DNA of 64,000 bases from Squalus acanthias (lineage: Eukaryota). The position numbers were made by a program, and so were the translations under genes. The notes under the pieces are model-generated. The model searched no databases. It saw nothing but the letters and a program-made list of their open reading frames with translations, and was not told the origin of the DNA. This document shows, piece after piece, positions 8,700 to 45,708 of the stretch; the first letter of the stretch is position 1, and the number at the start of each line of letters is the position of its first letter. The stretch is taken from the NCBI GenBank assembly GCA_030390025.1, contig CM059433.1:113584001-113648000 (forward strand). The letters run 5' to 3'.

Positions 8700-9074
8700 C
8701 CCCCAGCTGATCTTTAGTGACCAGGTCAGTTTTCCTTTTGCCATTTGTTCTGAAATAGTGTTCGCTCGGCCGAGCAGCACAAGCAAGGCTGTGCGTCCAA
8801 CAAGCCGGCCTGGGCTGTCGGATCGCCTCCCCCTGGCCTCAAATCGCTTGAAGCCGCCAGCAGTGCTGAGTGAGTGAGTGAGGGGGGGAAGGGGGAGAAC
8901 CCCTATTTTTGGTCTCGGCAGACAGTGCTGTGCTGGGGGCAGCTGGGGAACTCGGTGTGTACACGGGAAAGTAAGAGGGGGAGAAAAAGCTAACCTCCTG
9001 AACACACCTGACTACGCGTGCTAGCTTCCGGCTGATCCAATGGCTGTGGAAAAGCAGACGCCGCCTGTTACCAG
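8700..9074 (+). other. Putative distal first exon of a long LIN28B transcript (5' end uncertain)
   Basis: Lies in a CpG-rich segment and ends in a consensus donor CAG|GTGAGT at 9074/9075, 1.3 kb upstream of the 10406 acceptor. Contains an out-of-frame ATG at 9040. Confidence 0.5.
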
Positions 9075-9473
9075 GTGAGTTCCTGTATACAACATTCTTT
9101 AAATAGCCCTGTGGAAACCCGAGCCCTCAGACTGATCACACCGCGCCGTCTGCCTCACCAATGACTCTTGCAAAATGGGCAACAGAACTGAACCGTGGGT
9201 TCAAAATGATCATCCTGCAGCTATCTTATAATAAGCAGCTCTGCTCTTCTGAACAGTGGACGCTTTTTAAACGTTGAGACCTTTATATGTGATCGTTAGA
9301 GGCAAATCTATCTCTTTTTTTTGTTCATGTATTCGACTTCTGACCAGGAAAAATTACATCTGAAAAATATATTTTTTTTTAAACCTACAAAATGTTCGAT
9401 TCTCCTCATGTACTAGCAGCATAATCTAATGAATAAAATTCAGCAAATCGACCATTTTGAGCAAAATGTGTTT

Positions 9474-9717
9474 ACGCATTTCAGTGGAAGCTAGATAAGT
9501 ACATGCGGGAGAAAGGAATTGAAGGTTGTCGAAAGGGTGAGCTGAGGTAAGGCGGGGGGAGGAGGCTCGTGTGGAGCATAAACACCGGCACAGACCTGTT
9601 GGGCCGAATGGCCTGTTTCTGTGCTGTAAATGCTCTGTAAACGTGTGGAGCATAAACACCGGCACAGACCTGTTGGGCCGAATGGCCTGTTTCTGTGCTG
9701 TAAATGCTCTGTAAACG
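9474..9717 (+). mobile_element. CR1 LINE 3' fragment with a tandemly duplicated 74-bp tail
   Basis: Similar to the CR1 3' end at 20905-21067. The unit 9568-9641 is repeated exactly from 9642. Confidence 0.85.
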
Positions 9718-10405
9718 CCACTTTAACGCACACAAAGCCGTGCACATGCAAGTTTAAGTTAAAATGTGTTTGGTATGTATGAGACATACTGGAGTCGTTC
9801 AATGGGACCAGCAGCATAATCATTGCTTTTAATGCAAAAACTGAGCTCTAGGACGTTATTGCACAGAACAATCGGCTCAAGTCGAGGAGTGAGTACTGGA
9901 ACGCAGGGAGTTCTTGTGTTACACTCTGCTGGTAAAATATAATCCATTATTAATAGCCTGAAAGAATATACACCTCGGTTTTGCAGAAGGGAAACAAATC
10001 CGTATGTCTTTCTCTCAAAAATGTGGCTGGAATGTTTGCTACACGATAGTGTAACGCTGGAAGCGGCCGATCGATAAACACAAACTCCAGCATTAGAACT
10101 CACCACAGAGTGAACATTGTAAAGCTCCTGGCTGTCCTAGAGATTGGAACCGTGCTTGTGAATGCTCCTGTGAGAAGCTTGAATTGCACTCAGCCGATTT
10201 ATATTTGGCACAGTTTAGTCCTTTTGTCTGTCTAGTGAGAAAGGTAATCGGAACATTCAGAAATCTTTTGGGATGCAATGAGACGACAGGATTCCGTCTG
10301 GGGAAGCAATGGCCACATTTTTCGTCTAACTATAAAAGGTTGTGAACTGTGTGCAAACATTTACTGTCCTTTCATGCCAAACTGAGCAGACGTGTTAATT
10401 TCCAG

Positions 10406-10457
10406 GTCTCAGAGAAGAGGATGAGCTCATTCAAGATGGTTTCCTGTCCAGACTCAG
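10406..10457 (+). CDS. LIN28B: Putative distal alternative LIN28B exon (52 nt; ATG at 10421; MSSFKMVSCPDS|G, phase 1)
   Basis: tttccag| acceptor and CAG|gttggt donor. Reads VSEKR-MSSFKMVSCPDS-G, in frame with exon 2. Resembles the recalled human upstream LIN28B exon VLQKR-MRSFNQVSSAP-G. Confidence 0.7.
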
Positions 10458-13400
10458 GTTGGTCGTTCTCTTTAAAAAAAAATGTTTGTAATATATATAT
10501 ATAGACACATGCTTGTGTGCCACTGAAGCACGATGTGATCTGCATTTCTTAATTCTATAGTTTTATAAAGCAGATGATCTAACTGTACGGCGGTCAATTT
10601 TCTGACCGTCCAATGCATTCATTCATGGCATGTCCTAAAAGTACATGATGTCCTGAAATGCAGTTAGATAATACCTGATTTAATAAATGGCGCTGAGGCA
10701 TACACAAAGGATTGGCCCACCAAAAATATATTGTAATTTGGCTATAATAATTCGCTGTTTAGTCGGTGCTTCTTCAGGCTAAGCTTCATTTTCAGAAGTA
10801 GTAAACGTCTTGATGATTGTACCTAAAAGCTTAAAGTACCTTTTCAGGATATAACGACATTGTGGGCAACGTGGAATCAGTTGTTGCTGACTGCATAAAA
10901 CTGAAATTTATTTTCTCAAACGACATCACTTGCAAAATAATGTCGTTTGGGACACTTTTGGGAGGGTAGGGGAGGTTTTTTCGAGGGGGAGAATTCAGCC
11001 CTGAAGCACAGTATAAAACTTCAGCGAATATCACATACTTGTTAGTGCGAGAAATGTAACATTAACCAACCAATTTTGTGTGCAGTCGGTGAATTCCCGT
11101 GACTTCTTCGCGGACTGGTTGTGATTTATTTTAAAGCTATATGTTAGGTACAGTACTGTAACAAAAGGGGGGCTGTCACTGAGAAGCAGTTTCGAATGAA
11201 GTGAAGATGTTGGATCAGCCGCTCTGTGCGAGATACTCGACTAAACTCACCCGCTATAGGCATGACATGCTTAATAATTGTTTTAAAGAAACATTTCGGC
11301 AAGAAAGACTGGAAGAAAAAGGGAAGCCCATTTAGGAGACAGCTTGTGGGAACAGATAGGTGGCACAAGTTGGTGTCATCAGACTGCGCCGTGTCCGCAA
11401 CCAAACAATACGGTTACGCTCTAGTTGCTGGTTCCATCCTTGTATCCGGTAACTCAAAATTCAGTGTTGGAAAACAACACTTTGCATAGTTCGCCTAATT
11501 GATAACTCACAGAAACCTGCCAATTACACAGGCCGCTTCTGTCCCGCGGTAGCCAGAGTTGGAGAAAGGTTCTTCTCAAACTCACTTTATAATGGATCTA
11601 GTGGCGAGTTATTAGGACCAAAGTTACCCTGTCACTTTTGTTTCCGTTTGTAAACTGGAACCGGGGAGAAGCTGGTGTCCTTTTCAGTGTTCTGATGGGA
11701 TTGGTGGTGATTATTTTAAGGTTCAGGTAAACTGACTGGCCTCTTTATCCAACTCCGTGTGTGTGTGTAAGAAATCGAGCGGAAAGTGGCAAACAAGCAG
11801 AAATGTTAAAACTGGAACGGTGTGGTGGAAGTGACACCCGATATAGAGCTCGCCTTGGTTTCTGACACGCATTACCCGACCGTTCACAACGGAAGGCTAA
11901 GGCACTTACTGTGTGGAGTGGAGTTGCTGGATAGGTTGTGTGTGGAGCCAGCAGCGCTCGGTTCGGACATCCCCGACACACACAAGCGGTCTAAATCCAT
12001 GGGTCGGTCTGTCAGTGAGGCCAACGCCGTCCAAACTCTTATTTACATGGGAGTGGGTGGCATTTTATAATCGGAATTACACTTTTAGTTACTACGGTCC
12101 ACGCCCTCCCCCCGACTTGCCGCATGAAGACAAATGGGCTTTCCCCCACACCCGTGCCCTCTCTAGTCTCGTTATCTGTCTTGTAGTTACAACCGCACTG
12201 TTAATATTCTCAGCACGCCAGCATTTCGGCTTACTAAGTCATGAGGAACACACAGGCAACGTGTGTGTGTGTATAGAGTATCTAAAGGTGGTCCTTACTT
12301 GTCGGTTGGTATGCGGTTGTCTTGCTCCGGGCTGGTCGTGGTCACTCGGGAGTCCATTGTGTTGACTCGATTCCAGCAGCATTCACTCGCTCGTTCGTTC
12401 TCTCTCACTGACTCAGTCACTCCCTGCTCCAGCTCCAACACCAACCCCAAGCATCGCAAAACACTGACATCACCACCTGCCAGAGAGGGATTTCCTCGAG
12501 GCGCGTCATCCGACCAACACAGCCCTCTTAAAGAAGCAGGACCCGTCCCACCTCACTTTAAACGGCGACGGGGACACGCTTTGAATAAGGATGGTTGGTT
12601 CATGCAAGTTTTGATTTTTGAGGGTGAGGGCAAGCAGCGTTCTCAGATAATCCCACCCTCTTGTTAGTGACCTTTTTGTTTTGGACTAAACCGAATCTCA
12701 ACAAATCAACAACGAAGTGGTTCTCTGTCTCTCCTTGCAACTCCTGCAAAGTATTTTAAGATTACTTTAAGAAGAAAGGTGGGAAAGTACCTCCCCGTTT
12801 GAAGATTGTTTTTGGTTTCATAACGGTGGAAGTGGTGGGGGTCAGATGTCGTTAGAAGCAACAGACCATTCCTTCTCGAAGTTCTGTGGTGTTAGTAAAT
12901 TTGTTCATTTTTTTTAAATGAGGAAAATAAAACAGTTACCCCTAAATCAAGCCAAGAAGGTCACCAGTTTAAGCTCCATTCCTGAGTGACATTTGACTTT
13001 TTCTCCTCTTAAGATAAATTGCCAACCAGGCTCCATGATTTAGGGAACCCCCAGAAATGAATATCCCAGATGGGCATGAAAGCAATGTACAAATCCACAG
13101 ATTGCCAGACCTGAACCCTAACCATGACTAATGTTCACACTCAGGTTTGCCCCAGATGGTGAGGTGTTGATCTTGCTTTTGCTATTGAACATTACACCAA
13201 ATAATTCAGAGATGCCTACATGATCAAAGGGAGGGAAATTGTCTGGCATTCAACCTTTAGTTGCATTTCAGCCTGTAGTGTATAGGCTGACTACAGAACA
13301 ACATTCATTTTCACAGTCACCCAGATCAATGCGCAACTTCCAGGAGAATGCAAATAAAAAGGATAATTTGAAGAGCGAAGTCTTCAGTTGATGATGGAGC

Positions 13401-14829
13401 AGCATTGAAGGTGATTGGCGTGCCACAATCCTTCTCGCCCCCACCTGAAGGAGAAACTGTGATAATAGGAGGCATCATTTGGTGAGATGTTTACAAAGGG
13501 AGGCAAATATAATTCTGTCGAGTATTCCAGGTATTCGTATCATATTTACTTAACTCCCCATGCTGCAGTTATAGATAGAGTCAAAGTTTGGATTCTAAAC
13601 ATTTGGTAGATTTATAATCCAACAGAAGAGGTGGTGTTAGTTCAAATTATGCATAAAAAGCCTGAATTAAGTATTCCAATATGGTAGTCTGATTATTGAT
13701 AGTTTCAACAACATCACTGTTCTGTATTATAAGACATATGTTGTGCAAACTCTGGACGAAGACCTCCCAAGATAATCAGTAACAGTAATAACAAGGTTGT
13801 CTTGTACTTGTGATGGAAGTTGTTAAACATTTGACTGTTAGTCTGAAGTACAGCTTCATAAGTGCAATAAAGTACTACATGCTTATGCAGTGTTTTGTTT
13901 TACTTTCCATAGTCTCAAAGTGTATATTCAATGTATAACCTGAGATAATTAACAGGCTTTGATTAAAATAAAAATTATGAATTGCCAATCAACATTAATA
14001 ATTACAGTGTACAATTTAAACATGAGAGTGGAGGCAGCTACTGCACAGAACATCTATGAAGACATTTCTTGTTATTTAGGTGCAGTAAGTTTGAGATGTG
14101 ACAATTTGAAGTGCATATATTAACTGGGTTTCAAAGCTATGCTTTCAAGGTGAAATGAAGTCCTAATCTTGATGACTGGACGTATCATTATACTGAGTTA
14201 ATGGTGACTGATAATGCATGTGTTTAATATTAGTTTAAGTACATTCATAAACAGGAAAATGCAGTTAATGAAACTAAGCTTGATATGCCAGAAGCAGACC
14301 AAGTATGTGTGTGTGTGTGATTGCATTTGTAAAAATGTTAATATTCCTGTGCTGTCTGTTGCTGTACTAACTTCAAAGTACCCTGTACATGCTCTGGTGC
14401 ATAATGAAGAAGGGGTTGAGGCTGAATGGAACCATGTGTAAAAACTTATCTGCTAATCAAAACCGTCCTCTTTTGTCTATTTGTAGTCTGACTTTGATAG
14501 TTGTAGTGAAATGATCAGGTTTGTGGCTGAGTTTGGATAGTTTCCTAATTGGGGTTCAAGTCTCAATTATGTATGGCTTGACACATGTTAATGTTGGCTG
14601 ATCATTTTTGTTTCTTGTAGGTGGGGGGGGGGGAGGTGCTGTGTTGATGAAATTCTAATGATTTTTACATTTGAAATCCAATTATTTCAGTGGATTTAAA
14701 AACTATTTTTCCAGATAAATTAGGAAGATTTTCTAGCGGGACTGATTTGTCTAATTTGTATGTTAACTACATAACTTTGACTCATGTTATTATGGAGTTC
14801 CCCCTCTGACAGTCCTGGCTCTTACTGTG

Positions 14830-15060
14830 ACACGGTTGCATGGATGTCAATAAGCCTTACCCAAGAGACCATTCTTCATGTGTAAGCCGAAATAGTCATG
14901 TCAGCAGGATATTCGACCATAAAGAGCATCACAGATAAGTTCAGTCCTGTACTTAACTGATAATCACACCCACATACATTCCAGCATAATCACTGGCTCG
15001 GAAACAGAACCAGAAACATCCATCCCACCCCTGGTCAAGGCTGCTGAGGCCAATTTCAGT
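14830..15060 (-). mobile_element. SINE family B, interrupted by LINE insertions and resuming at about 16625-16720
   Basis: Reverse-complement motifs ccattcttcatgtgt and gctgaggccaatt, then gctgagatt.g.taact after the LINE block. Confidence 0.6.
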
Positions 15061-16620: not shown

Positions 16621-16841
16621 CTTTTCACTAGAGCCTCAGCTGAGATTAGGTAACTAACCAGGGACCTTAGTGATCCGAATGGTTCATTATCAAATCAGGA
16701 ATTGCATGTATCCACTAGTGGAGCTTCAAGATATTCTTTCACTCATTGGTACATGAGTACCAATTCCCACCCATAGCTTAGTGCACAAAACCACCTCCTC
16801 CTGTGTTGCTGAGCCATAGGGACCAGAAAGGTCCATATATA

Positions 16842-17308
16842 GGGCTGGATTTTAATTGACCCATGGAGGCGGGTTTGGAGGTGTGTGCGGGGGTTAAAAT
16901 TGTGAAAACTGGTGGGCGGGCACAAGTCCGCCTCCATCCTGCCTCCACGCAATTTTCATTAAATCGTGTCTGCTGGTCCCGACTCCATCCCGCCTCTAAG
17001 AGGCGGGATAGGCTGTTAAGGCCCTTAACAAGCACTAAATTGGCTCTAAAATGCCATTTTGAAAGGCCTTTGTGATTTTAACCCTTGTTCTATGTGAAGC
17101 ACGCCTGTTCTGGACCACGATTGTGAAACCTGGCGGGAGCACATTTGTCTCTCTCTCTCTCTCTCTCTGAAAACACTAATTGGTTCTGGTTTCCCACATG
17201 CTTGAATTCAGTTGCCCAATTAGGTGAAAATTGCATCAATCTCCCACATCCAATTGCAGTCGGGTGGATAACATGACCCCAACCCGCCCCAGTATCAAAA
17301 TCCAGCCC
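16842..17308. mobile_element. MITE with GGGCTGGATTTT terminal inverted repeats (PIF/Harbinger-like)
   Basis: Starts gggctggatttt and ends aaaatccagccc, flanked by ATA / TTA (TWA-like 3-bp target site). GC-rich subterminal GGCGGG motifs. Confidence 0.7.
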
Positions 17309-17309
17309 T

Positions 17310-18045: not shown

Positions 18046-18399
18046 GAGATGGTCTTGCTGGTGGAATTTAAAAGCAAAGTCAAGTTCTCACAGGCACACA
18101 TTGGCCTAATTGTGAAATATTTGTATGAACTGCCCATGTTAGGGATCTAAAAAAACAAAACATGTTAGACATACACAGCAAATCAGTCAACATCTGTAAA
18201 GAGGGAAGATGGGTTATGACATTTCAGGCGTGTACCCGTCATCAGAATTTTTTCTGTTTATTTTTTAAAAATTTGTGTGGGGAGAATTTTTTTCTTAATT
18301 GATGTTTGCCACTATCAAGCCAAATATTTCTTTGTTATACGAGGACATCTTATACTGAATGAAAGGATATGGAAAGTGTTTTTTCCAGGAGCAGATATT

Positions 18400-21664: not shown

Positions 21665-21795
21665 AGAGTTCTGACAAAGGGTCTACATCTGAAAAGTTAA
21701 CTTATCTGTTCGCTCCACAGATGCTGGCTGACCTGCTGAGTATTTACAGAATTTTCTGTTTTTGTTTCAGATTTCCAACATCTGCAGTTTTTTGT
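21665..21795 (-). mobile_element. Short dispersed repeat, family C (tentatively Penelope-associated terminal sequence)
   Basis: Reverse complement of aaaactgcagatg.tggaaatctgaaa..aaaacagaaaa..actcagcaggtca..cagcatctgtggag. Also at about 18150, 30850, 36300, 40815, 56985 and 61330. Confidence 0.55.
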
Positions 21796-21859
21796 TCCAA
21801 CACCTCTGTACAAAGAAATTCTCCTAACCTTTCTAGTCACTTTTTTGCAATAATTTAAA

Positions 21860-29858: not shown

Positions 29859-30649
29859 AAATAAAGCTAATGTTTATACACCACACAGATAACATTAGTT
29901 CATATTCTGTCTAATCATTGTTTGCATATATGAATCCTATAAACAACAATGCCATCAACACTAAATGTGATCAGAACTAAACCCTACTATGCAGTTTACA
30001 TTAAACAGTAAGGTTTTCCCATTCAAAAACACAGCTACATTATATCTATTTACACAATATCCAAAGAAGAAATAATTAGTTTTCCCCTTTAAAGATAATG
30101 TGTGTGAAAAGGATCCTGAATGAGCAGAATAGTCCACAAGACCAAATACAATTGCCAGTTCCTGAACTGGTAGTCAGTATCGCTGTCTGTATATCATGAG
30201 TCCAACTGAAATGAAAATGTTGCAGTAGTGCTACTGGAAACTTTGTACCAGCAGTGAACATATTTTAAAGATGTCAATGAAGTGTGTTGAGCACATTTCC
30301 CCCAAAGCAATAGAACAACAGAAACAAGATTTAGAAAACAGCATGTTGGTGCTCCAGTAGAATGGTAAGATGCAGGATTTTCTTCATGATTCCCTACAAG
30401 ATGATTTGTCAATCTTGGTTGTGAAGTTGTAAGAAGCATACAGCAAATTCTATGCTCCTCCACAGAAAATCAATTCTTCCCTGGACTGCTGTCGTGTATT
30501 TCCTGGAAACCTGGTTAAAAATAGAATTGTCAGAGCCTTGGAAACAGGTTGTCTCTCTTCCCTCCTAGCTGGAAAATGATAAAGGACTGGGCAAAATACA
30601 AAAGGGGAGAGGGATACATTTTTTTCAGATTGAATATTACATCTGTGCA

Positions 30650-31095
30650 TATATAAATATGTAAAGTCATAACAAGAGGGTGCAAATTTAAGATGATAAA
30701 GAATTAAAGGGGAAGTTAGAAAATATTTATTTTCAGAGGTAGGTAAAATATGTAATTCTCTGCCATGATCCATTACTGTAACAAAGTCCATAAGTTATTT
30801 TAAAAGGGAATTGGATAGTTACTTGACAAAGAGGAATATTAAAGTAACACAAAAGCAAAATACTGTGGATGCTGGAAGTCTGAAATAAAAACAGAAAATC
30901 TTGGGAATACTCAGCAGGTCAGACAGCATCTGTGGAGAGAGAAACAGAGTTAACGGTTCAGCTCCATTACCTTTCGTCAGAACTGATATTAAAGTGTATG
31001 GGGAGCAAGCAGGAGATTGAGATTAGGTTAGGTGGCTCATGTGGAGAAAAACACCAGTATTATTCGATGGGCCAAATGGCTTGGTTTAAAATATG
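30650..31095 (+). mobile_element. Old CR1 3' fragment interrupted by a family C repeat (about 30850-30985)
   Basis: The CR1 3' sequence stops at atattaaagt and resumes at atattaaagt (apparent target duplication) on either side of the insert. Confidence 0.65.
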
Positions 31096-31589
31096 TAAAC
31101 CTATCGGAACTGAATCTTCCAGCTGCTGCTCGCTGTTTTGCAACCTTTGTAAAGCGCAATTGAAATCGTAATTTAATTCCTCGGATGCCTGGCATCGTTC
31201 CTTGACTATGAGGAGGGGCAAGCAACCCACTCCCAGTCCTGTCTCACTGTGCCTTGGAAGATGTAACCAATTTCTCAAAGGGTTGCAGGAACAACCATTT
31301 TTTTATTTTTTACGTTGATTTTTCTCACTGCCTTTGTGGAAATCCTTTCTTTTTGTGTGTATTTTACATTAAATGGCAAAGGTCAGGAAATCGCGGGCAC
31401 GCAGCCGCGTCCTACCACTCCATGCTTCAGTGTGTCGGTGCGCCAAGGTATATTAAGTCCAGCACCCATGTACTTGATAAATAGCTGCAATAAACTGCAA
31501 ACTTTGAAGACTAGAGTTAAAAATACTTCCAGCTTAGTTCTCTTGATGCCCTGTGATTAAATGCGCTGCATATTGTGCTCCAAAGCCCA

Positions 31590-31880
31590 ACAGCCCAAGA
31601 AATCCCCAAGCTTGTCTCTGGTCTGTGCTGAGTTAGCGCATCATCAAGGCAATAGTGTAGAAGTGAAATGGGCTTTAGTGGCTCTGGATTAGGGAAAGAG
31701 GAAATCAGTTAGAGTTCGTGCTCCTCCTAATTGCTGTCCAAGTGGAAACCTCCTCCCCCATCCCAACGTGTGTACTGCCTGCTACAGTTAAATACCACAT
31801 TGACCAGGCTAACGTGTAAACGGTGCATATTAGGCACGATGCCAGGGGACTGTTGATGCGTGTGAGGAGAGGGATGAGCA
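31590..31880 (+). mobile_element. SINE family B, degenerate
   Basis: ggtctgtgctgagttagc and aggga..ggaaatcag motifs. Confidence 0.5.
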
Positions 31881-33149
31881 AATAACAAATTTGGGACAGA
31901 AAATCTATACCTTGTTGGGATGTCCTATTGTGCACAGTACACACGAGAACTCGAATTACAGCTTCGATTGCTTGGCCACCAGAATTCAAACGTGCAAATA
32001 TTGAGGTAAATCACTGACTACTGGTGGAAAATGTTAAGCTTAAACCACTGCTCCCGGCTTTTTAATCGGCCAATATTGGCCAGACGGTCTTGTCTCTTTC
32101 AGGTAACAAATGGTTTTCCGTTTATCAGACCTCCACTAGCCTACTTCTTTCTGAACCAAAGAACGCGAGTGTGACACCCACGAAATGCCAGTCTTTGAGA
32201 GGCGTGCCTAGCTGCCCCGCTCACAAGATTCCAGCTTCCTCTCCCTAATCCTCCCTCTCTCTTTTTTAAAGGTTTAACTGCTGGATGGTGTCGGTTTTGC
32301 TAATGTTTTCTTCTTCAGATCTCTGTCTGTGAATATCCTTTGCGTCATTTCCTGATATCGGAATAAGTGACACAAACTGTTTTTTTTTAAAAAAAACGAA
32401 AATTCTTATGTTCCACGTATGTTCAACCATTTCAAAATTAAAAAAATAATATATGCATAACTGTTCGCTTCTGGAAACATGCGAATAAATGTCCAATGTG
32501 TGCGGTTCTGAAGAAAGGCAAAATGACAAAATGCTTTATTGTCCCCAAACCCTGGAGTTAATTGTAACTTCTGACACACACACTTATGCTTCGTTAAACA
32601 CAAATAAAAAGTAACCATCACAGTAAAAGAGACTGTTCTTGTTATCCGCAGCTATAACTAAGGCGGAGTAATCCGCCCCTTTCTCCTTTTATCTCTGCAG
32701 TTAAACATAAACATATAAGAGATTGCAGTACACGTCCTAATTCGCCCTCGGTGGATTTCATAACGATCACCTGGTTTCATGGATAATTATGGTTCCTAGT
32801 TGCTCATTCACAAACATTTTTGATATACATCTTATTACTTCACAACGAATGAGTTTAATGTGAAACTAGCTTTCCAAGCCTCCTAAATTTTCTTTAATGA
32901 TTCATACCAATCGCTGCCTTTTCTCATTGGTAAGTACATTAATATCAGTTGTATATGTACAAAAAGGGCCAAAAAGTACGGGACCCCCATCTATACCCTC
33001 TCCACTACCGCCACTGTGCTGACCACATAAAGTCATAGAAGAGACAGAAATTTCTACAATTTAACATTGGCAAGACCAAGCTCAACTCCTGCCAAAAATT
33101 CTACACTGGGGCTTCCAATCCCAGTCCTCTCCAGCTGCTTGCTTAGACA

Positions 33150-34335
33150 GAATCCTATGGTCCGAGACTTTGCTGCCCAATTTAATACTAAATTGAGCTT
33201 CAAACTTCTATTCTTTCACCATAGCTGCCTATTTCCACCTCTACCATTTTACCCACCTCTGTCCTGATCTCATCCCCCACCATCACTTAAACCCTCATCC
33301 ATACCTTCATCATCTCCAACATTCTTCACATTCTCTCGAGTTCATTCGTACATAAACTCCTACTCGTCCAAAATACTAACACACTCACACTTTTTATTAA
33401 TCACAGAATGGGGGCAATGCTTGCATTTATTGCCCATTCCTAGTTGCCCTGAGAAGGTGATGATGGACCTTCTTGAATCGTTTGGATTATGGTGGTGTTA
33501 GGTAGGGAATTCATGGAAATTGACCCAGCAACGATGAAGGAGCAGTGATTATATATCCAAGGCAGGATGGTGAGTAATTTAGAGGCAATAGTGTTCTATA
33601 ACATTTCTGTTCTTGTTCTTCCCGGAAGTTGCAACAATGGGGGAGATGCTGTTGAAGCAACTTTGGTGAGTTTCTATAGTCTACCCTGTAGCCACAATTC
33701 GATGGTGGTGGAGGGAGTGGATATATTGAGTCCAGTGGTTTGAGCACAGATCAATCAGAGTGTTGGGTCCTGGATGGTGCCAAGCAGCTTGTGTATTGTT
33801 GCAGCTGTACATACCAAGGTGAGTGGTGAGTGCTCCATCACACTCCTTAAGCCTTGTCGATTATGGAAAGGTTCTGAGGGGGTTAGGATGTGATCCAGGC
33901 ATTAGAGTTCTCAGCCTCTGTCCTGCTCTTGTAGCCAAAGTGTTGCAATGGCTGGCCGAGTTAAGCTTCAGGTCGGTGCTGATGCCTTATATATTGATAG
34001 TGGGGGACTCAGCAATGGTGGTGCTATTGAAGGTTGGTGAAGCAGGTTGGGCTTCTCCTTATTAGGTAAGCGGGTCTTAGAATGCAATACAGCCTTATCC
34101 TTGCTGCCTTCCAGTGGCACCCCATCTCCCAACACATTCGATTCAAAATCGTTCCTACATGTACAAACTCTTCCTGCCCATATAATAATGTTGCTCTCCA
34201 CTCTTCCATCGCTGACCTGGGCCTCTTCCCCTCACATTCAGTGGTCAAGCCTATATTCTGGAACTCTCTCCTTTAAGTTTCTACACCTGGGTACCTCTTG
34301 CCCCAATTTCAAAAGCCTCCTCAAAACCTTTGGTC
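33150..34335. mobile_element. Old L2 fragments (+) flanking an old minus-strand copy (about 33395-34080) of the 15061-16620 LINE family
   Basis: aaaccctcatccataccttc (L2), and gcatttattgcccattcctagttgccctgagaagg matching 15105-15140. Confidence 0.65.
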
Positions 34336-36721
34336 GCCTTTTAACTCTCATGCTGGGTGTTTTTTATAATGTCTTGGCGTATTAAAATCTGTGTTAAAAG
34401 CGAATGGAAGTTGAACTGCATTACTGATATGCAAGAAGAAAAAGATGCCTATTGCAGGTGATAATGAGATGTTCCAACATTTCACAGAGTACAAATGTAG
34501 ACAAGGCACGAATTCTGTATGCATGTGAAAAAAAGTGTGGATCAAACAATTAACTGACGAGAAAAAAAATCGCTAACGGGGGCTATAGAATGAGACAGTA
34601 AAAGTCGGCAGTAAATGTATTTATTTTAATCAAAATATAAAGTAATTTCCCCTCTAAGCGTGGAATAGTGTATTATTTCTAATATTTTGATTTGAAAACA
34701 GAATTTTGTATAAGTCATAAACTGAAAGTGATAATTGTGGGAAAATTGAAATACTGAGGGGGCTTACGATAGATAACAAGGAAGAGGCGGCAGTGTTAAT
34801 TACAGGCATTAGGAAATGCGGCAGGTCGAGTTGCCAGCTCACAAAATTACGGAAGGATTACAGGGACACGATTACAAAGTTAATTCTACAGTTTAGAGCC
34901 GTGATAAACTCGGATCACTTTCCAGACCGAACTAATCGCCAATCCGTGTTTTAAAGGCGTCTAGTTGCTTGCAGCTCCGGCTGTGAATGGAACTGTTGGG
35001 AGTTTCCTAGTGCCCGCCCACAGTCAATGCTTTTCACTATAGGTTGACTTGCTATATCCGGCGCGGACGGACATCTACTCTTCATACAGTTAGCCGCCAA
35101 CTCAAATAATTGTACTTTTACCTCCAGTGTAGCGGTTGGATGTTAAATTGTCTTAATTAAAATTCGCGAAATTTACCTGCTCGAACCGAAGATAATAAAA
35201 TGCACTTGGAACCTATAACATGTGGCAGTTCGTTATAACAAGATGTGAAATCCGTTGTTCTTATAATTGCAAATAGTAATTAAAATTGTTACCCCGTGGT
35301 GGTAATTGGGTGTTGTAGCCGTATTTTATCAAATAAGTGTTAGCGACATGAAATCAATATTTAAAAACCGACGGGCAATTATTACATTTGAAAACTTTCA
35401 TGGACAGACTCTTATTTTGGGAGCGTCATTCATAGAGAGCCAGAAAGTGAGCACGCCGATTAAGCCGGGTGTGTTGATTTAATAAATGTAATAAAGTAGG
35501 GGCGGGGCCCCATCCTTTGCGGAGTTGAGACTAGGCGAAAGCAGCAAAACCGCGTGTTGACGAGTAACGCCGCACTGCCCGTTTTCCAAGAGGCACTTCC
35601 AGGTTTTTTTTTGTTTACCCCCCTCCCTCTCAATCAACCAGCCTATCCAGATAACTTGAGTTGTTCGCCTCTGGACAGATGTTGCACTGGGCGTAATTTG
35701 TAAAACTCACGAGAACGTCAGTTTGGAGGGGATATTGCGGTTTCTTAAAACGATACTTATCTATTCTCGGTGCAAAGGAAGTTCCTGACACATGGGTTTA
35801 TGTTCAATTATTTCCCAAGGGAACCTGAGCACAGGCCGAAAGGTCGGGCTCCTCCCTCTCTTGGGCATTCCTTTGAATAGATATTGTGTGATATTGTCAT
35901 CGAAAGTCTAATAAGAGAAGGAAACCAGCAAGTTAACATAATCATGTGACCACCAACTCCCCAAGTCCATTCCATATGTCGGTCTCTTTCTGTCCCATTC
36001 TTCCATTTAGGCGCTGCTCGGTTTGTGTCGTGTACCTTTTGATTTGCTTTTTTTTCCAGAATGGCGTGTTATTCAGTTAACGTGATGACTTCAGGTGCCC
36101 CGCCTTAGCCTGCAGGGGAAGGACAAGCCCCCGGCATTGCGAACCTAACGTCTTAGAACTCCTGTAAACTCAATTAAGATGCGTGAGATACTAATTAAAA
36201 GCCACCCAACCGCCTTATCGAGCGCCTAATCTTACAATGTTAGTAATTTACCCTAACCTAATTTAAATGTCCGTGCTCTCTGGACACGTTCAGTTAACTA
36301 AACCCAATTCGCATACACGTTTCTCTCTCCACGGATGTTGCCTGGCCTGCTGAGTTTTTCCAGCGTTTTCTGTTGTTATTTCGCATACACTGGTTCTGTT
36401 CTTTGACCAAGTTCCCCAGCGTCTTCTCCAGTGCAGGCTACAATCAAATGGCAATTGTTCAGCACAACTGTACGTGTTGATGTAGTGTGAGCCACGAACA
36501 TTTCAGATCCAATTCGGTTGAAACAAATTTCAGATCGTGTAAGCAGCAAAATATAAAGAGCGCACCAAATGATCAAGTTGAGGTTGATTGCGATTGGTTA
36601 TGGAAAATCCGACGCCTAATGTATGTTGTGAGTAAATAGGTAGCAGGATGACGACGAGAGCAGGAAATGTACAAAAGTCATCCAGGGTAGACCTGCTATT
36701 GGATTAATAAAATGCAGCGAC

Positions 36722-36825
36722 GGGAATCTCCTCGTGGCGTCTCCCGCTCCGCCGCCGTAACTTCGTCGGATAGCCCAAACGGGATTGCCGCCGTAGTTAT
36801 GGCGGCGAAGCCCCAGGAAATTCCC
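36722..36825. repeat. GC-rich palindromic element of about 105 bp
   Basis: Outer gggaatctcct / aggaaattccc and inner 36750-36769 / 36788-36807 (17/20) inverted pairs. Confidence 0.75.
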
Positions 36826-37425
36826 CAAGTTACTGCTCAGGAGATCGTTTAAAAAAAAAACATAATTAATCTTTTATCTGGAAAATGAGTTGTTTGAGGG
36901 ACAAATGCTGAGATCCAGAATCGAATTTTCTATTTTCAATCCAAATCTAATTGATTTCAACAAATTCCAACTTTTTCCTCACTGACCATTTTCTTTTTGA
37001 TATCCACGCGCTTCCTCCCTCCCTTCCCCCCAGTTTGGACATTGACTTGCGGCTGGCCTGTGCCTTTGGGCTTCAGCTATACTGCAGCTACCCTCTCCGG
37101 CCCATTTCCGAAGTGCGATGCGCGGCCGGAAGACCGGGGTTATACTGCTGGTTACTAATCTGCCCAGATGGCAGGTACAAAGGAGCAAGAATGCTTCCAC
37201 AGGGGCCCGAGATCCTCTCCCTGGGACATTAATTGCTCAGAAAGCGCTGCCGGAGCTTGGATCTTCTGGTCATATTCTAAAGATTCCACGCACCTTTTTT
37301 TTCCCTCGAAGTTTCCACCAGTTCCTGCACCAAAATGTCAGTATTACAGCTTCTGTTACACGACGAGGTTATTTGTTGGGAAATACATCGGAGTTTTTGG
37401 TGTAAGGGACCATGTAACGGAATAC

Positions 37426-37447
37426 ATGGAAACTATTAAGTATGAAG
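37426..37447 (+). CDS. Candidate alternative LIN28B 5' exon (METIKYE|G, phase 1)
   Basis: ATG GAA ACT ATT AAG TAT GAA G|gtaagt: a consensus donor, in phase with exon 2, in a CpG-rich domain. No homology support recalled. Confidence 0.3.
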
Positions 37448-39095
37448 GTAAGTATAGGTGTGAAAACCATATTGAAGGCCATGTATTTATATTGGGTATT
37501 TTGAGTACAGTTGTGTAAGTGCGCTGCACATATACCGTGTGTTGACTGGTGTCTGAGACGCTGTAAATGAACACGGGTGAACAGTGACCACAGTACACAC
37601 GACTTCCCGTCGTGCTGAAACGAGGGACACTGCCGCTGCTCTGACACTAGCCGCCTTTGCTCAGCCCTCTGCTCACTGCTGCCGAGCCCCTCCCAGTTAG
37701 CCGTGACAGGCCGTTCACTGGGCCATTTTATTCATAATGGGAGCACGTCTGAAACGGCGCTCACCTCACCAGGGGCACGGAGGCTGGGTTGTAATAGAGT
37801 TAGGGGTGTGTTGTGGACGGTATTTTTGTGTAAGTCGGTTGAACAAGAAATCGTAAGATGTTTCTTGGCTAAATTCTGTGCAACTAGGTGTGACATAACG
37901 GACACGTTTTCGAGAGGTTACGTCCCTGATCTTAAAGATCTTTACAGATGTTTTGTGGCCCAGGGAACCGAGATCAAAATCAGAAACGGCGAGATTTAAA
38001 GGGACCGAAGCGCCAACGGTATAGTAGGATTAAACCCCAAGGCATTAAGTCAAACAGATGTGTTAATTTATATCAAATATATAAATAATTAACCACCGCC
38101 CGACATTTAAGAATGGCTGATTCCTGATCTTAACGGGATCCACGCTGTATGTCAAATAAAGTTTTATTTGTTTTTTCCCCCCTCTGTTGGTCTTTTTCAA
38201 TAAAACAAAATACACTTTGTGAAGTGATTATTCCCCCCAAACATCGAATCATCCAACAATCATCGGACGGTCGAACAGCCTGTAACAAACGCCCGGCCCC
38301 AATGAAACTCAATCCCAATCGACGACGTTTTATTTAAATTCGACCGAATAATTTCCGTTTCGATAGAACGAAATATGTTGCGTTGAACCACATTTTGGAA
38401 CTTTACTGTCTGGCCGGGTCCTCGTGACACTTGATTTGCCACTTAAGACGAAAAAAATGGAATTGCGGAGCGGGATAGTCACATGTCCGATCGCTCTAGA
38501 CTGGAACTGTGTTTGAAAACTTGCAAATATGTGCTCGCCTCGCTCCCAGCACTGCAAACACAAACTGGAAAGTCTGCTGGACTTGAGTCGAACTGCTGTA
38601 AACACCTACATAATCAGGCAAGGTTGATCAGGTCGATTTGTCACCCCCCCCCCCCCCCCCCCAACCACCATTTAAAAATAAACGCTGCCATCACTTTTCA
38701 CTTGAGAAAAGGGCTCACATCTTGTTAAATCCGTTCCAATGACGATTCAAAATTTGTTTTACAGAGAAACGCTTCGATTTGTTATCAGATTACAGATTCA
38801 ATATTTTGGGGTGGTTCCTGGAACACTTCCCGGTCGATATGTCTGAAGCACACACTTAACGTTTAATCCGTCACCAGCCATCATCTATGGGGAAGTCCAT
38901 TGGTAGCTTTTATTTAAGATTAGTCATTTCGAATGAAGAGGTGCTGCTGATCTGGCAGATGTAAATTTTACTTAGAAAAGGTTTCTTTAAAAAAAGGGAC
39001 ACCCACACCCAAAGCCTTATCATCGGTCTCCTGGTAAAATCCTAAGTATGTGGCTAATACCACCTTAAATAGTGAAACTTCTGAACATCACTGTA

Positions 39096-39130
<35 letters not shown>

Positions 39131-40639
39131 GTGGTATTTTCTATAGAGTCCGCAAATAAAGATGGCGACAAGCCTGTAACTGGCGGACGGACGGACCATG
39201 GTGCCAGTTCTCCGAATGACTGTTAATTTGTTGATTTTAAAATGGGGGAAAAAATAACAAATTTACTGGCTATTGCGGCGAAAATGAATATTATCTGCCC
39301 ACGCACAGCAGTCGGGAGCTGTGCACGAATATGGTGCTGCCAGGTCTGGTGTCGGATTGCAATCAATGACCAGTGTCCACTGTATATACTGCGGAATCTC
39401 TCCATTTCCACTGGCAGGCCCACGGTTCAATCAGGGACGGCGAGTATCGGTGGGCCCCACCAAACACATTTATGAATGAGTTCCACGCATCACGCCAGGA
39501 CCTGGGCGTGTTCACACTTTGAAAATGAGTGTCAACTGATATATCTATTACTTTCAACATTCACGAATATCGCCGTGTTGGGAGGGGGGGGGGGGGTTAA
39601 TGTGGTTTGCTCAAGATTCCTGATCAATCTAGTTCCCTTTACAAGTATCGATGCGGCTCACTTTAATGGAGCCGGCGCTGTAGCTAGCGAGTAAGGAGCA
39701 GTGTGGTGCGCAGGTCCGAGTGAATCCCCCCCCACCCACCCCCAACAATCAACCAGCTTGAAAGAATTTTCCGGGGTAAGAGTCACCGGCGCTAACAAAG
39801 GCCTTTGCTGTTTTAAAGAGCACCTCGTCCCTTTGTCCTGTCCCCTCCCAGGCAAAGGCAGCCCTATGCACTGGGGAGTGGAAGGTAAGCACCATTCGCA
39901 CAGGAGATCGCACAGGAAGCTGCTGCAAGGGCTGATACCCTTTATCTCACGTGCAGCAGGCGTGCACAGCGGAGTGAACAGGGGGGAAGGGAGTGGGGGT
40001 GGGGGGCGGTGCGAGAATCAATAGTCCGCCAAGCCTCCTGATGACTTTCCCGGGGGTGGTGGGAATAAAACAAAACGTTGACACAATACTCTGCTTCTCA
40101 CCGTGTGATGCATTCAGCTGGTCTTCAGAGGAAACCCGTTTTAAAGGACTCGTTCCGGCTTAATTAGCAACACTAATGAAGTATCCGAATCACTTGTTAA
40201 CTCACATCCCCTGGCGAGTCAATGCCGCACATTGAGAATTGTTGAAAATTCGATTTTAGTGGATTAGTTTTATCTGACAAATCTCTCACACGTGTATTTT
40301 AATATAAAAAAAATCTTGTTATGTAAATACCAAACTGTATATTTTATAAATATAAATAACAGGTAAATATTTCCATCTATAATTTTAAATATAATTCTTT
40401 TGAACATTCATTTCAACCGAAAATGTAGGAATCCCAACGAATTGTGCATAAGCAAGGCTATAAAATGGGTGCTTTAGCACTATGGTAATGTTGTGGATTA
40501 AATCTACATATTCTTCCCAATTTCTGAAAATATCCGTCATGGACGCTGACCTATCATAAAATGATGGAAGTGCTATGAAAGCTAATCGTTATTAAACGTA
40601 TCAGGTGTTGAGTTTTCTTTTATACACATTATATTTGGG

Positions 40640-41600
40640 TGTCATTCTTGGCTCAGTGAGAGCTGAGTCAGAAGGTCGTCGGTTCAAGCCCCACTCCAAC
40701 AACAACAACAACTTGTATTTATATGGCGCCTTAACGTAGTAAAACGTCCCAAGGCGCTGCATATGAGTATTTTAAGACAAAAAAATTGACACCAATCCAC
40801 ATAAGGATAAATTAGAAACAACAGCAGAAAACGCTGGAAAAACTCAGCAGGCCAGGCAACATCGGTGGAGAGAGAAACAGAGTTAACGTTTCAGGTCGAA
40901 ACCCTTCGTCAGAACTGAGAAAAGAGCAGGAAATGAAACAGATAAAAATGCAAGGGGGAGGCTGGGGGGAGGAATAACTATGGTAAGTAGAGACATTAAG
41001 AGATGCTCATTTAGAGCAGGTTTGGTCAAAGAGGTAGGTTTTAAGGAGCGTCTTAAAGGAGGAAAGAGAGGTAGCGAGGCGGAGAGGTTTAGGCAGGGAG
41101 TTCCGGAGCTTAGGGCCTAGGCAACAGAAGGCACGGCCACCAAAGGTTGAATGATTATAATCAGGGATCCTCAAGAGGGCAGAATTAGAGGAGCGCAGAT
41201 ATCTGAGGGGGTTTGTGGGGCTGAAGGAGATTACAGAGATAGGAAGGGGCGAGACATGGGCTCCAGAGACTTGAGCACAGAATCCAGGCTGACACTCCAG
41301 CGCAGTACTGAGGGAGTGCTGCACTGTCCCAGGTGCCTTCATTTGGATGAAACGTTAAACCAAGGCCCTATCTACCTTCTCAGGTGGCACTGTTTTGAAG
41401 AGGAGCAGCAGAGTTGCCCAAGTGTCCTGGGCAATATTTATCCCTCAACCAACATCACTAAAACAGATTATCTGGTCATTATCTCATTGCTGTTTGTGTG
41501 AACTTGATGTGTGCGTTTCCTACATCACAACACCTCAAAAGTGCTCCCCTTGTCTGTAAAGCGCTTTGGGGGCATCCTAGGTCCTGAAAGACGCTATATA
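40640..41600 (+). mobile_element. Deu-domain SINE split by a minus-strand L2 3' fragment (about 40699-41260) that itself contains a family C repeat
   Basis: The SINE head ends ccactcca and resumes ctccagagacttgagcac (CTCCA duplicated). L2 tail (caa)n-cttgtatttatat, peptide GGRAFCCLGPKLRNSLP..SFKTLLKTYLF. Confidence 0.85.
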
Positions 41601-44460
41601 AATGCAAGTTATTTCTTTATATATCTTGAATCGCACAAAGCCCATTGCTGAAACAGAAAGCCGATGTATAAAATTAAACTCCGAGTAGCTTTCTTCAGCG
41701 CGACGAAACCTAAATCTGATCTGGCGAATTGCTTTTGGGGTTTAATTATACCCACAATACTGAATTCGATAGAAAAAAAAATCAGCGTTTGCCCAAGAGA
41801 CCTTTATCAATAGGACCTCAGAAAAGCGATGCCTCCTTGCTGGCTGGTCAAGGCAAACTTGCAGTGTAAGGTCGAGGTGCTAGAATGTAAAGTTTTTGGT
41901 GGGTGGGGGGACTTTAGCAAGAATTTAAACTTTATCTTCAAGTCGGATCTTTCAGGAAGAAACACTAATGCGTGAGAAATGTGTAATAAAGACTTAAAAA
42001 AGTTATTTTTGAGCAAACACAGAAATGCTTACTGGGGAACGCGGCTGCAGCCGGTTAAATTCCCTAAGCTGTTTTTTTTTGTATATTGTTAAAGGATTGC
42101 GATTTTTTTTTTTTAAAAAAGCTTTCTTTATAAAGAACAACTTGGCTGATTCTTTCTGAATGGGCTAAAGCTGGGATGTGGGCTTCCCAGCTGACCAAAC
42201 CTATACCTTTGCATGACTTGAAAGGCTGATGTCCTCGCACAGGAAATGAATGACTCGATAACATCTGACACCCAGTGACCACTCTGCTGACCCGATCTTA
42301 ATTCTCCTAATACGAGGAAAAGCCTGAAACAGCCGCTTCTGCCGGCCGGAGTCGGAGGATCAAATATTAAAGGAGAAACTGGGATATATCAGTTGTATTT
42401 GTGATAGTTGACTTTATCGATTTGTAATTTGGGGGGGGGGGGGGGGTTCATTTATGAGTTCGGGAAGCATTGCGCACTCAGTAAAACTGAAAGCTTTCAA
42501 CCCCCCCCCCCCCCTTAAAGACTGCCCATTTGCTCTGTTAACGGGGACTTTAAGAATCTCAAGAATTTAGAAGTATCCTTAACTTGTCTGAGGCGCGCGT
42601 CACGAATAAAATACCAACTTCGACCCCATATACTCATTGGGCGTTTGCAAATAAACTGATGCCTTTCGATTGTTTTTCATGTCTTTGTTTGAAATGAGTG
42701 CACTTACATCTTTTGCAGAAGGCAGGCACGTATTCTTTTGGAAACGGTGGGCATGTGGGCTTTTCTTGGTTGCATGTGGCTTCGTGGCGAAAGTAATCGC
42801 AGTAAAATGAAAGGTTATTTGTAAAACGTGTAGGGGACCGCAGCAGGGTTTTTTTAAAAAAGATTTGATGGTTTTAAATTCAATCGATGGCCTGGTACAA
42901 AGCGGTACTGGAAACACTGGAGAGAGAGAGAGAAAAAAGAGACGAGAGTGATCACAGAGCCAACAAACGCAACCATTTTAGGTCGGTTTAGGGATTGGAC
43001 TCAACTCACGCTCTGTTGAAATAACCTATAGGAAATTTACGGTTGAAGACTTCAAAGGAATTTCAGGACTGAGAGCTTCTACTTTAGTTAGTAGGTTGTT
43101 CTCTCTCTCTCTTCCCTCCTCCAACCCGTTAAAAAAAATCTGTCCCACACCGCCTGCGATGCTTGACCAGCACACTTTAGGGGACAAAAGTGCATGTTGT
43201 GCGAAAGCAAATGTTTGCGACTTTTAAGACGCTGATGTTAGAACAGCAAACAAGCCCTTTAAGTGCAAACTGCCCCTTACAATTGGTCAGACTAGTTGGC
43301 GCCGACACGTCGGGCCAGTTTTTTTTTGGAGTAAAACGCATGGTAATCGACAATGCATGGCAAGCAATGTTAAATCGGCCACTTTCCTCCCCCCCCCCTC
43401 CTTCCTTCCTAAAACATCAAGTTTTACCATCACGCCTCTCCCCTTTTCAGAGAGCCTTCCACATTTCTCCTCCAAACGCCAAATGTAAAGGTATTTCAAA
43501 ATAACAACAGGAGCAATGAAGCAAATGCTTGACCTTTGAACCCTTTTGGAGGGGCATTTCCTTTTAACAAAAAGTGAGGGAAAGTCGCATGTGGGAGAAG
43601 ACTAATCATCTTTAGTGTTGATGAGATATATATATATATATAGATATGTTTATGCTTTCAAAACTGGGCCGTCCCCAGGTACATGTGGCCTTAAAAGCCC
43701 AAAATGCTTGAAAAAGGCACCGCGTTATCTGTTGTTGCACCCGTCACTGGAATCCTCATTCTAAAATAAAGGCATCAAGTATGGCTTGTGTGATTGATGA
43801 ACCGTTTTATAGTTTAAACGGAGATCATTTCAAAAATGACATCTTACATTCAAATGGTATCACCTTGCTTTAAGGGGGAGACACAAAACTGCTGCTCCCC
43901 GATCGTGTTTATTACTCAGAAGGAAAAGTATCCAGTATCTTTTGTGAGATCTTTGATTATTTTGTGCGGAGATCTTCTCTGAATGTTACTAAATAAAAAT
44001 GCGTAGGCGACATGCCCGGGGTTCCTTTTGCACAATTTTAAAATCTGTCCTTCCTATATTTAACCTGCAATTTTTTATATATATATATCAGAATATTACA
44101 TTCACGAAACTCTTCGCTGCATTAACAATATTTAGATCCGTTTCACCAAATGCATAGGTTTATTGCTAGCGAGTGTGAACTGTCGAGATTTCTGAATAAA
44201 TTCACACACAGCATTGTCAGTTTATATATGATCGTGTTTATCATAATAGTTGATCTGTGGTTAGTTTTTATATATATATATATATATAGGTTGCATAGCT
44301 TGACGTTCCCCACAGAAAGCAAAACAACGGGGGAAGAGACCCTGTAGCTTTAAGTATATCGAGATGACCGGTTCATCAAAAATGTCGGACAAATTAGCTG
44401 GGTAAAAAATCTGGAGGTTTTTTTTGGGGGAATCATCGATTAATGCGGTGACAGGTTAGA

Positions 44461-44746
44461 GGAGAGGCCGATTGGCTCTGTTCTGCCTCTCTAAAGACTG
44501 CGATGTGTAATTAGCGGCAAGAAAGCATGTAATTGACGAGTCACGTGTGTGCCAGGGCCAGGAAGGGAAAGGAGGAGGGGGGGGGGGGGAACTAACGAGG
44601 GAAAGCACGTTAGACCATGCGAGCATTGGCGATTGCTAAATTTTTGATCCCTGAATCCTATGACGCTAGATTGATGCAGAAGATTACCCATTCCAAGGAA
44701 AAAGTTCTCATCGGGCGGGTTTGGACACAGGGGCCTGTGTGACAAC
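44461..44746 (+). promoter_or_regulatory. LIN28B: LIN28B proximal promoter and 5' UTR
   Basis: Inverted CCAAT (ATTGG 44471-44475) and E-box CACGTG (44542-44547). Blocks such as TGTAATTGAC..GTCACGTGTG, GAAAGCAC.TTAGACCATGCGAGC and TAGATTGATGCAGAAGAT match the human LIN28B 5' UTR as I recall it. Confidence 0.8.
44617..44742 (+). CDS. 41-aa upstream ORF in the LIN28B 5' UTR
   Basis: accATG...GTG TGA is open for 42 codons: MRALAIAKFLIPESYDARLMQKITHSKEKVLIGRVWTQGPV*. The stop lies 4 nt before the LIN28B ATG. Translation is not demonstrated. Confidence 0.55.
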   Translation: MRALAIAKFLIPESYDARLMQKITHSKEKVLIGRVWTQGPV

Positions 44747-44756
44747 ATGGCCGAAG
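44747..44756 (+). CDS. LIN28B: LIN28B canonical exon 1, coding part (M-A-E-G, phase 1)
   Basis: acaacATGGCCGAAG|gttact has a good Kozak context (A at -3, G at +4). It matches the vertebrate LIN28B N-terminus MAEG and joins exon 2 in frame (G+GA = Gly). Confidence 0.93.
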
Positions 44757-45223
44757 GTTACTTTTTTTCTCTCTCTCTTTCTCTCTTGTTTAAAAAAAAA
44801 TCCTTTTTTTTTTGCATACTTTTAAGAGATCGCAGAGGGGGCTTTTCCAAACCCATTGTTGTAGATCTCCCAAAATGTATGTACCCGCCCCCCATTTATT
44901 CACAACTTCAAAGGCTTTCTGAGGGCTATTGTGTGGACTGTTTGTGTCCGATTAAGCACAGTTTTCTCTCTCTCGCTCTCTCTCTCTCTCTCAGTTTGTG
45001 TGTGGAAGGCAACACTGTACACCTGCCCCTTAAGTTTGATCGGAGAACGCACGCTGGACGCTACAGTAGTTTTCTTCAGTATAATACGAAGCTTGTTCTA
45101 GTGGAGCAATACAAAACAAAAAAGCTCTCGCGATCGACGCTGTTGAATGTTGATCACGATTAGCGAAAAGAGCGGAGGGAGAAAAAAAAAGCCGGGCTTG
45201 TGTGACAGTGGTTTCTGCGGGAG

Positions 45224-45254
45224 ATGGGCTCCGTTTTAAACCAGCCGTATTCCA
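45224..45254 (+). CDS. LIN28A-like alternative first exon (or relic) in LIN28B intron 1: MGSVLNQPYS, phase 1
   Basis: gagATGGGCTCCGTTTTAAACCAGCCGTATTCCA|gttacg is 31 nt followed by GT, the same length and phase as the LIN28A first coding exon (MGSVSNQQFA|G). The donor is weak. Confidence 0.55.
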
Positions 45255-45526
45255 GTTACGTACGGTTTGCTAATCGTAATTTGCTGCCTCAAACATGGAG
45301 TAAAGGAGGATTGCACATGGATCAGAATCGATATTACAATGGCTTTGCCATATAGGCTGCAGCCAATGTCCATGTCGATGTGTGAAGTGCTTTCTTTCAG
45401 AAGCTTATTTTTAAATGTACTTTGTTAATTATTTCCACCCCCCCCCCACTCCTCTTTTCCGTCAGATAAATTGAAACCTTGTTTTTCTTCCCCCTCTCTC
45501 TCCCCTCTGTGTTTGCAATTGTCCAG

Positions 45527-45708
45527 GAGGGACGGGTAAAGGTGGTGGAGACGAAAAAGGAAAATTGACAGAGAAAGAAGACTCTCAAATCCAGCAGGGA
45601 GCAGGCCACTGTAAATGGTTCAACGTTAGAATGGGATTCGGGTTTATCTCCATGACCTCTCGGGAAGGCACCCCCTTGGAGACGCCAGTCGATGTTTTCG
45701 TACACCAA
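45527..45708 (+). CDS. LIN28B: LIN28B exon 2, N-terminal half of the cold-shock domain
   Basis: Long polypyrimidine tract plus gtccag| acceptor, and CAA|gtaagt donor. Translates (G)GTGKGGGDEKGKLTEKEDSQIQQGAGHCKWFNVRMGFGFISMTSREGTPLETPVDVFVHQ. The GHCKWFNVRMGFGFISM and VDVFVHQ motifs are LIN28B-type (LIN28A has GICKW..GFLSM). Confidence 0.98.

Follow-up and report, generated by a model that had tools for sequence, protein, structure and literature searches.

We propose with good confidence that the 5' end of shark LIN28B carries three alternative 5' coding exons, with N-termini beginning MSSF, MAE and MGSV, which are spliced to one exon 2, probably from separate promoters, and which place three different tails ahead of an unchanged RNA-binding core. 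Since all three exons are joined to the same exon 2, the protein receives one of three short N-terminal tails. LIN28B is a stem-cell gene that is both an oncogene and a developmental timer. The class of mechanism, alternative 5' exons, is ordinary, and the main interest of the arrangement is its link to a tumour isoform of human LIN28B.

Identity of the gene

We analysed a 64,000-nucleotide stretch of shark DNA, referred to as the window. An exon of 182 nt at 45527..45708 on the + strand, the common exon 2, encodes a linker and the first half of a cold-shock domain, and its best protein matches are all LIN28B proteins of cartilaginous fishes (sharks, rays and chimaera). The genome contains two matches to a LIN28 exon 2, one being the window on C9 and the other a paralog on C16 at 61%. 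On C9, exon 3 follows 88.4 kb downstream and is 100% identical to residues 73-135 of Heterodontus LIN28B. These matches bear out the first-pass annotation, which had named the gene LIN28B. By sequence comparison, the window holds the 5' end of the LIN28B orthologue and a separate LIN28A-like paralog (lin28a) is located on C16. The last exon, with two CCHC zinc knuckles and the C-terminal tail, was not found within 100 kb downstream of the window, and tblastn of other annotated N-termini against the window revealed no further exon. The exon 2 acceptor of lin28a on C16 is a tandem NAGNAG with its two sites 3 nt apart, and shark, newt and bird models show matching one-residue variants.

Candidate 5' segments and their sequence context

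The first-pass annotation had proposed four interchangeable coding first exons for this gene: 10421-10457 (37 nt; MSSF, here A), 37426-37447 (22 nt; METIKYE, B), 44747-44756 (10 nt; MAE, C) and 45224-45254 (31 nt; MGSV, D). The coordinates and translations given for them were right. All four segments are 3n+1 long, have GT as the next letters, are in frame with the exon 2 acceptor at 45527, and lie within CpG-retaining DNA, where CpG o/e is mostly 0.6-1.4. This DNA forms two domains, at about 7.5-13 kb and 34.5-47.5 kb, and elsewhere o/e is mostly below 0.5. The distal CpG-retaining domain (7500..13000, unstranded, CpG o/e 0.64-0.95) is likely to be the promoter region for the MSSF isoform, and the proximal domain (34500..47500, unstranded, mostly 0.6-1.4) extends over the MAE exon, the MGSV exon and exon 2. 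The two domains are only suggestive of separate transcription start regions. Four CCAAT boxes within 1.1 kb near 9074 and a single E-box at 44542 were considered and set aside, as they were near chance.

Open segments of 40 nt or less that run from an ATG to a phase-1 GT are common in this DNA: 7500-45526 contains 368 of them on the + strand and 324 on the - strand. Taken by itself, the pattern does not exceed chance and is weak evidence for an exon. Donor scores, calculated with a textbook donor matrix, were 2.0 for A (10457), 8.7 for B (37447), 0.4 for C (44756) and -6.1 for D (45254). Donor strength was therefore rejected as a test of which segments are real, as the three donors with other support score far below the one that lacks it. 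Since the pattern is common and the donor scores are unhelpful, outside evidence had to decide among the segments. Across the whole window, the + strand has 10 strong consensus donors (score of at least 6.5) and the - strand has 0. The supported 5' donors (10457, 44756, 45254 and that of the lin28a D exon) all start GTT, not the usual GTA or GTG, and do so in both paralogs.

Splice junctions in assembled contigs

We aligned contigs from four runs (X1-X4) to positions 44300-45800 of the window. These runs are RNA by guess and come from three samples at most, with X1 and X3 representing one sample. Within exon 2, mismatches to the window number 9 of 182 letters in X1 and X3 and 1 of 141 in X4; X2 has none. 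This varying mismatch indicates that the runs derive from relatives of varying closeness to the species of the window.

Exon C was joined to exon 2 in two contigs, record 8 of run X3 (178 and 184 letters on the two sides) and record 1 of run X1 (178 and 32 letters). Exon D was joined to exon 2 in run X1, from 45254 to 45527, with a skip of 272 nt bordered by GT..AG and a depth of 12.4; the short side of this joint is 30 letters, one below our 31-letter bar. An exon 2 contig of run X1 begins exactly at 45527, as is expected where two upstream exons meet. In record 12 of run X4 (depth 4.1), 141 letters lie on exon 2 and 179 form a loose end; the 30 letters shown of this loose end are identical to window positions 10425-10454, within exon A. 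Exons A and D are thus each represented by one contig from one sample, and exon C by two contigs. Distinct 5' coding exons A, C and D, and not B, are spliced in frame to one acceptor. The junction from 44756 to 45527 is not the only one at this acceptor, as those of A and D were also found. Other sharks, moreover, conserve these segments, and the earlier proposal of alternative 5' exons stands to that extent. No contig joining 37447 to exon 2 was present in the four runs; because none of these runs is on record as RNA, the missing contig is no evidence that segment B is silent.

The sole contig of run X2 on 44300-45800 has a different structure. It is 212 nt long: the final 30 letters of exon 2 come first and a complete exon 2 comes after them, with 0 differences from the window and a depth of 13.1. 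This head-to-tail contig fits a back-spliced single-exon circle of exon 2 between long introns (88 kb below), and may alternatively represent a tandem duplication or an assembly cycle. Comparison of 30000-45526 with 45709-64000 for inverted repeats flanking exon 2 gave just one 50-nt match, and no mention of 'circLIN28B' was found in the literature.

Conservation of the three N-termini

We classed the N-termini of 444 proteins by hand-made patterns, counting records and not species in a non-random, author-chosen set that consists mostly of computed gene models. Among 232 LIN28B-type proteins, 82 had the MSSF-type N-terminus of exon A, 62 that of C (MAE), 25 that of D (MGSV) and 57 another, and 6 had no N-terminus. 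The corresponding counts among 204 LIN28A-type proteins were 0, 39, 97, 60 and 8. Eight of the 444 were not assigned to either paralog type, and 117 had an N-terminus classed as 'other'. All three LIN28B tails were present in one species in Chiloscyllium, Scyliorhinus and horse. At the protein level the ATG, frame and peptide of A, C and D are conserved from sharks to mammals. The central idea of the first-pass annotation, that alternative 5' exons exchange the short N-terminal tail preceding the cold-shock domain, is upheld for A, C and D by both junctions and proteins. It had also supposed that the arrangement is old, and the A, C and D tails do recur across jawed vertebrates, from sharks to mammals.

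Exon A (10406..10457, + strand, 52 nt) consists of VSEKR codons, the ATG at 10421 (MSSFKMVSCPDS) and a phase-1 donor. An acceptor AG is located at 10404-10405, 15 nt above the ATG. In eight extended A-type models (sharks, bichir, turtles, lizard and bird) the five positions before the Met are kept as V/I-x-x-K-x, and the sequence upstream of V-x-x-K-x is unrelated among them. The acceptor and the conserved pre-Met codons together indicate that exon A is an internal cassette. MSSF had been described as a first exon, which the acceptor refutes, and the exon instead works like an alternative start. A-type tails were found in LIN28B of sharks, skate, chimaera, bichir, sturgeon, gar, eel, lungfish, amphibians, reptiles, birds, marsupials and placentals. 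Between lineages the A peptide varies widely, with MSTLKK in gar and MMRLYK in lungfish, for example. The end of the intron preceding exon A is itself conserved.

A candidate end for the exon upstream of exon A lies at 9040..9074 on the + strand (ATG, 35 nt, phase 2), and its donor score of 8.1 is the second best in the window. The ATG at 9040 is out of frame with exon A, and if spliced to 10406 it would, by in silico translation, open a 17-codon uORF whose TGA overlaps the exon A start codon. A first exon ending at 9074 is likely to feed exon A through a putative junction 9074-10406. The intron between 9074 and exon A contains an exact 74-nt tandem duplication in a dispersed repeat (9568-9717). 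Repeats are also present at 8-9 kb.

Exon C, the canonical first exon (44577..44756, + strand), has the MAE start codon at 44747, and its 5' end is a contig start and not a mapped TSS. Upstream ATGs at 44617, 44660 and 44674 open uORFs that stop before 44747. The 5' UTR at 44617-44742 contains uORFs of 41 and 22 codons that stop just above the start, and it is conserved, in that gene models of lemur, loris and coelacanth translated from UTR match the window.

Exon D, the LIN28A-like proximal exon (45018..45254, + strand), starts translation at 45224 (MGSVLNQPYS) and is separated from exon 2 by a 272-nt intron. MGSV forms of LIN28B occur in sharks, bowfin, paddlefish, coelacanth, snakes, birds, horse, seals, mustelids, bat and whale. 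Exon D is identical at 22 of 31 nt to the D exon of lin28a in the same genome, which lies about 200 nt above its own exon 2. The residue at the D junction is R in sharks, S in mammals and T in snakes and birds, and after MAE it is G or A. The D-junction residues fit a donor ending in A from sharks to mammals, which suggests, on the testimony of the proteins, that the weak D donor is itself old.

Could A and D be rare splicing noise or annotation artefacts, with MAE alone functional? Their donors are weak, the models are mostly predicted, and their contig depths are below the 54.6-60.7 seen otherwise, although depth is a poor measure. We consider this reading very improbable, since frame and peptide persist in both sharks and mammals, the two Xenopus lin28a forms have curated NP_ records and have been studied, and peptide evidence exists for the human A-type form (PMC13405042).

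The METIKYE segment

The proposal of four ATG exons thus stood for three, MSSF, MAE and MGSV, which have junctions and conserved proteins, and was not supported for METIKYE. Segment B (37426..37447, + strand), which is single copy in the genome, is unsupported as a coding exon: no junction was found, and the peptide was present in 0 of 583 proteins. It is unlikely that all four, METIKYE included, are coding first exons. The segment does have the best donor in the window and lies in frame in CpG-rich unique DNA, and its start codon has G at +4; however, the same codon has T at -3, and 39866-39884, another segment in the proximal CpG domain with a strong donor (7.1), is equally unsupported. Exon A, moreover, is internal. 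Run X3 has a depth of 6.82 in the bin 37163-37713, a value that is repeat-swamped and uninterpretable near B. A further point in favour of additional 5' exons comes from several shark LIN28B models of 212 aa, in which the Met lies inside exon 2 and part of the cold-shock domain is removed, as these forms imply further non-coding 5' exons. A 209-aa form of human LIN28B has been reported in naive hESCs (PMC12247766). Most probably, METIKYE is no conserved coding exon, and segment B is possibly a non-coding or lineage-specific first exon.

History of the exons in LIN28A and LIN28B

LIN28A proteins with both the MAE and the MGSV N-terminus were found in catshark, bamboo shark, sturgeon, bichir, eel, Xenopus, newt and turtle, and the MAE form also in basking shark. 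The first-pass annotation had suggested that the two paralogs might have retained different first exons from a common ancestral state. This is contradicted by the occurrence of MAE and MGSV in both paralogs, and such a reciprocal split is valid only for the familiar mammalian reference forms. Presence in both paralogs implies that the two exons predate the LIN28A/LIN28B duplication and were mostly kept by both, and the distribution among protein sequences supports this greater age of the MAE/MGSV pair. Exon A may be either a gain in LIN28B or an early loss from LIN28A. The protein sample contained no mammal or bird LIN28A with MAE, and a late loss of MAE in these lineages is possible.

In a tree of the core domain, 14 LIN28B rows formed a clade (98/100), as did 9 bony-vertebrate LIN28A rows (99/99), and both clades include C and D tails. 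The tree is unrooted, having no outgroup, and six shark LIN28A rows sit between the two clades. Pattern scans of the 120 kb above lin28a in this genome, which include one 500-N gap, did not find an MAE exon with donor, and a DNA search of the genome with the MAE exon matched only the window itself; this may reflect either loss or an assembly gap. The A, C and D tails were recognisable in 0 of 150 representatives screened as a jawless-vertebrate and invertebrate outgroup, none of which is known to be a jawless vertebrate. The lone D-like outgroup candidate was rejected as a pigeon copy; pigeons have an extra, strongly diverged LIN28A-like copy. Shark LIN28A has a long C-terminal tail with a basic end, at about 250 aa against about 200 in bony vertebrates. 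This feature is usually tied to LIN28B and may be ancestral.

Proposed role of the alternative exons

We suggest that the distal CpG domain would drive MSSF via the first exon ending at 9074, and that the proximal CpG domain would drive MAE and MGSV. Promoter choice would then set stage and tissue, and the tails and the uORFs of the 5' UTR would tune the amount of protein, by half-life and translation, and not its RNA specificity; we regard this part of the proposal as evenly balanced. Met removal would expose Ser, Ala and Gly as the first residue of the A, C and D tails, respectively. Differences in the first residue could affect whether the N-terminus is acetylated or acts as a degron. C has three upstream ATGs, and A may have an overlapping uORF.

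A strong rival, to which we give somewhat less than even weight, is that only promoter choice matters and that the tails are inert by-products, kept through the need for an in-frame ATG and through overlap with regulatory DNA. The tails are only 3-12 residues long and stand ahead of a linker, and the divergence of the A peptide, together with conservation of the C 5' UTR and of the intron end above exon A, speaks for this reading. The N-terminus of Xenopus lin28a is moreover predicted to be disordered, and both of its isoforms bind the same RNA (PMC4982076). However, MGSV-x-NQ is kept in both paralogs, and record 3 of run X1, with 10 differences in all of which 2 are unlisted, has its 8 listed substitutions and 3 listed gaps all in the D 5' UTR and 0 in the coding sequence of D. 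The human long form is also reported to be stabilised (review PMC10296230). The three natural N-termini provide a testable set. Since the MAE/MGSV pair predates the duplication, knock-outs or tags placed at one start codon may miss isoforms.

Comparison with known systems

The clustered protocadherins and UGT1A have variable first exons that are tandem duplicates and encode whole domains. Shark LIN28B resembles these arrays in having several 5' exons on one constant body. It differs in that its exons are three in number, are unrelated to each other and not a tandem array, and encode 3-12 residues (10-52 coding-side nt).

RefSeq and UniRef LIN28B isoforms X1-X4 of Chiloscyllium, Scyliorhinus, Stegostoma, Heterodontus, horse and others model the same three N-termini, as unlabelled predictions, and METIKYE is in none of them. 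Xenopus lin28a1 and lin28a2 are two isoforms that arise from 'small 5' protein coding exons' (Faas 2013, cited in PMC4982076), and their records start MAE and MGSV, the same pair as shark C and D. The Xenopus pair belongs to the other paralog and has no exon A, and the passages of PMC4982076 concerned draw no link to LIN28B exons. Conserved regulatory DNA has been described at both LIN28 loci, in passages that do not mention isoforms (PMC12465051). Alternative 5' exons of human LIN28B and Xenopus lin28a are thus already known, and all three tails are in RefSeq models. Our literature search, with subscription journals and bioRxiv supplements outside it, turned up no description of the three exons as a set, of the pair common to both paralogs, or of the LIN28B MGSV form.

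The human isoform LIN28B-TST, or AluJb-LIN28B, was reportedly described by Guo in 2018 and by Jang in 2019, and these authors may already have noted the conservation of its exon. Transcription of LIN28B-TST starts about 20 kb upstream, and the extra N-terminal residues stabilise the protein (review PMC10296230). The isoform is AluJb-driven and is also placental (PMC10363060), and it has 22 added residues (PMC10760525). A 258-aa LIN28B from the AluJb start has been reported in primed hESCs (PMC12247766). The supplement of PMC13405042 gives the junction of the long LIN28B as chr6:104937116|104950461 and lists the epitopes SSAPGGASK, MSHRRQVLQK, QVSSAPGGASK and VSSAPGGASK, and the same paper pursues the long isoform as a tumour-specific antigen.

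LIN28B-TST is like the shark A form in having a longer N-terminus fed by a distal promoter, which in the shark is a putative one. The use of an internal exon ending in an SSAP/CPDS-type peptide is common to both, with the shark junction found in run X4. The epitopes MSHRRQVLQK and QVSSAPGGASK align with the start (V-x-x-K; VLQK) and the end of exon A, and the 258 aa of LIN28B-TST equal the length of mammalian A-type models. Three of the four epitopes were unchanged in 20-22 of 613 proteins, all of them A-type mammalian models (such as pig, horse, seal and squirrel), and MSHRRQ was present in 0 of the 613. Six residues before VLQK, plus five, plus eleven, give the 22, so that by this arithmetic from the epitopes about 16 of the 22 added residues are likely to come from the ancient exon A. 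The human isoform uses a primate Alu promoter with its own ATG. In the shark, the candidate upstream exon sits within a CpG-retaining domain, and the ATG of this exon does not share the reading frame of exon A.

If most of the extra sequence of LIN28B-TST is an exon conserved since sharks, that exon would have a normal role and probably normal promoters, and its age would bear on antigen safety and on the reading of onco-exaptation. On balance, we favour the view that LIN28B-TST is no new chimera but a developmental isoform as old as the jawed vertebrates, in which all that the Alu contributed was a promoter and six codons, added to a cassette exon already in use in sharks, that its proposed neo-epitopes would be mostly normal developmental self, that mammals keep an unstudied MGSV start in LIN28B, and that shark exon 2 can circularise.
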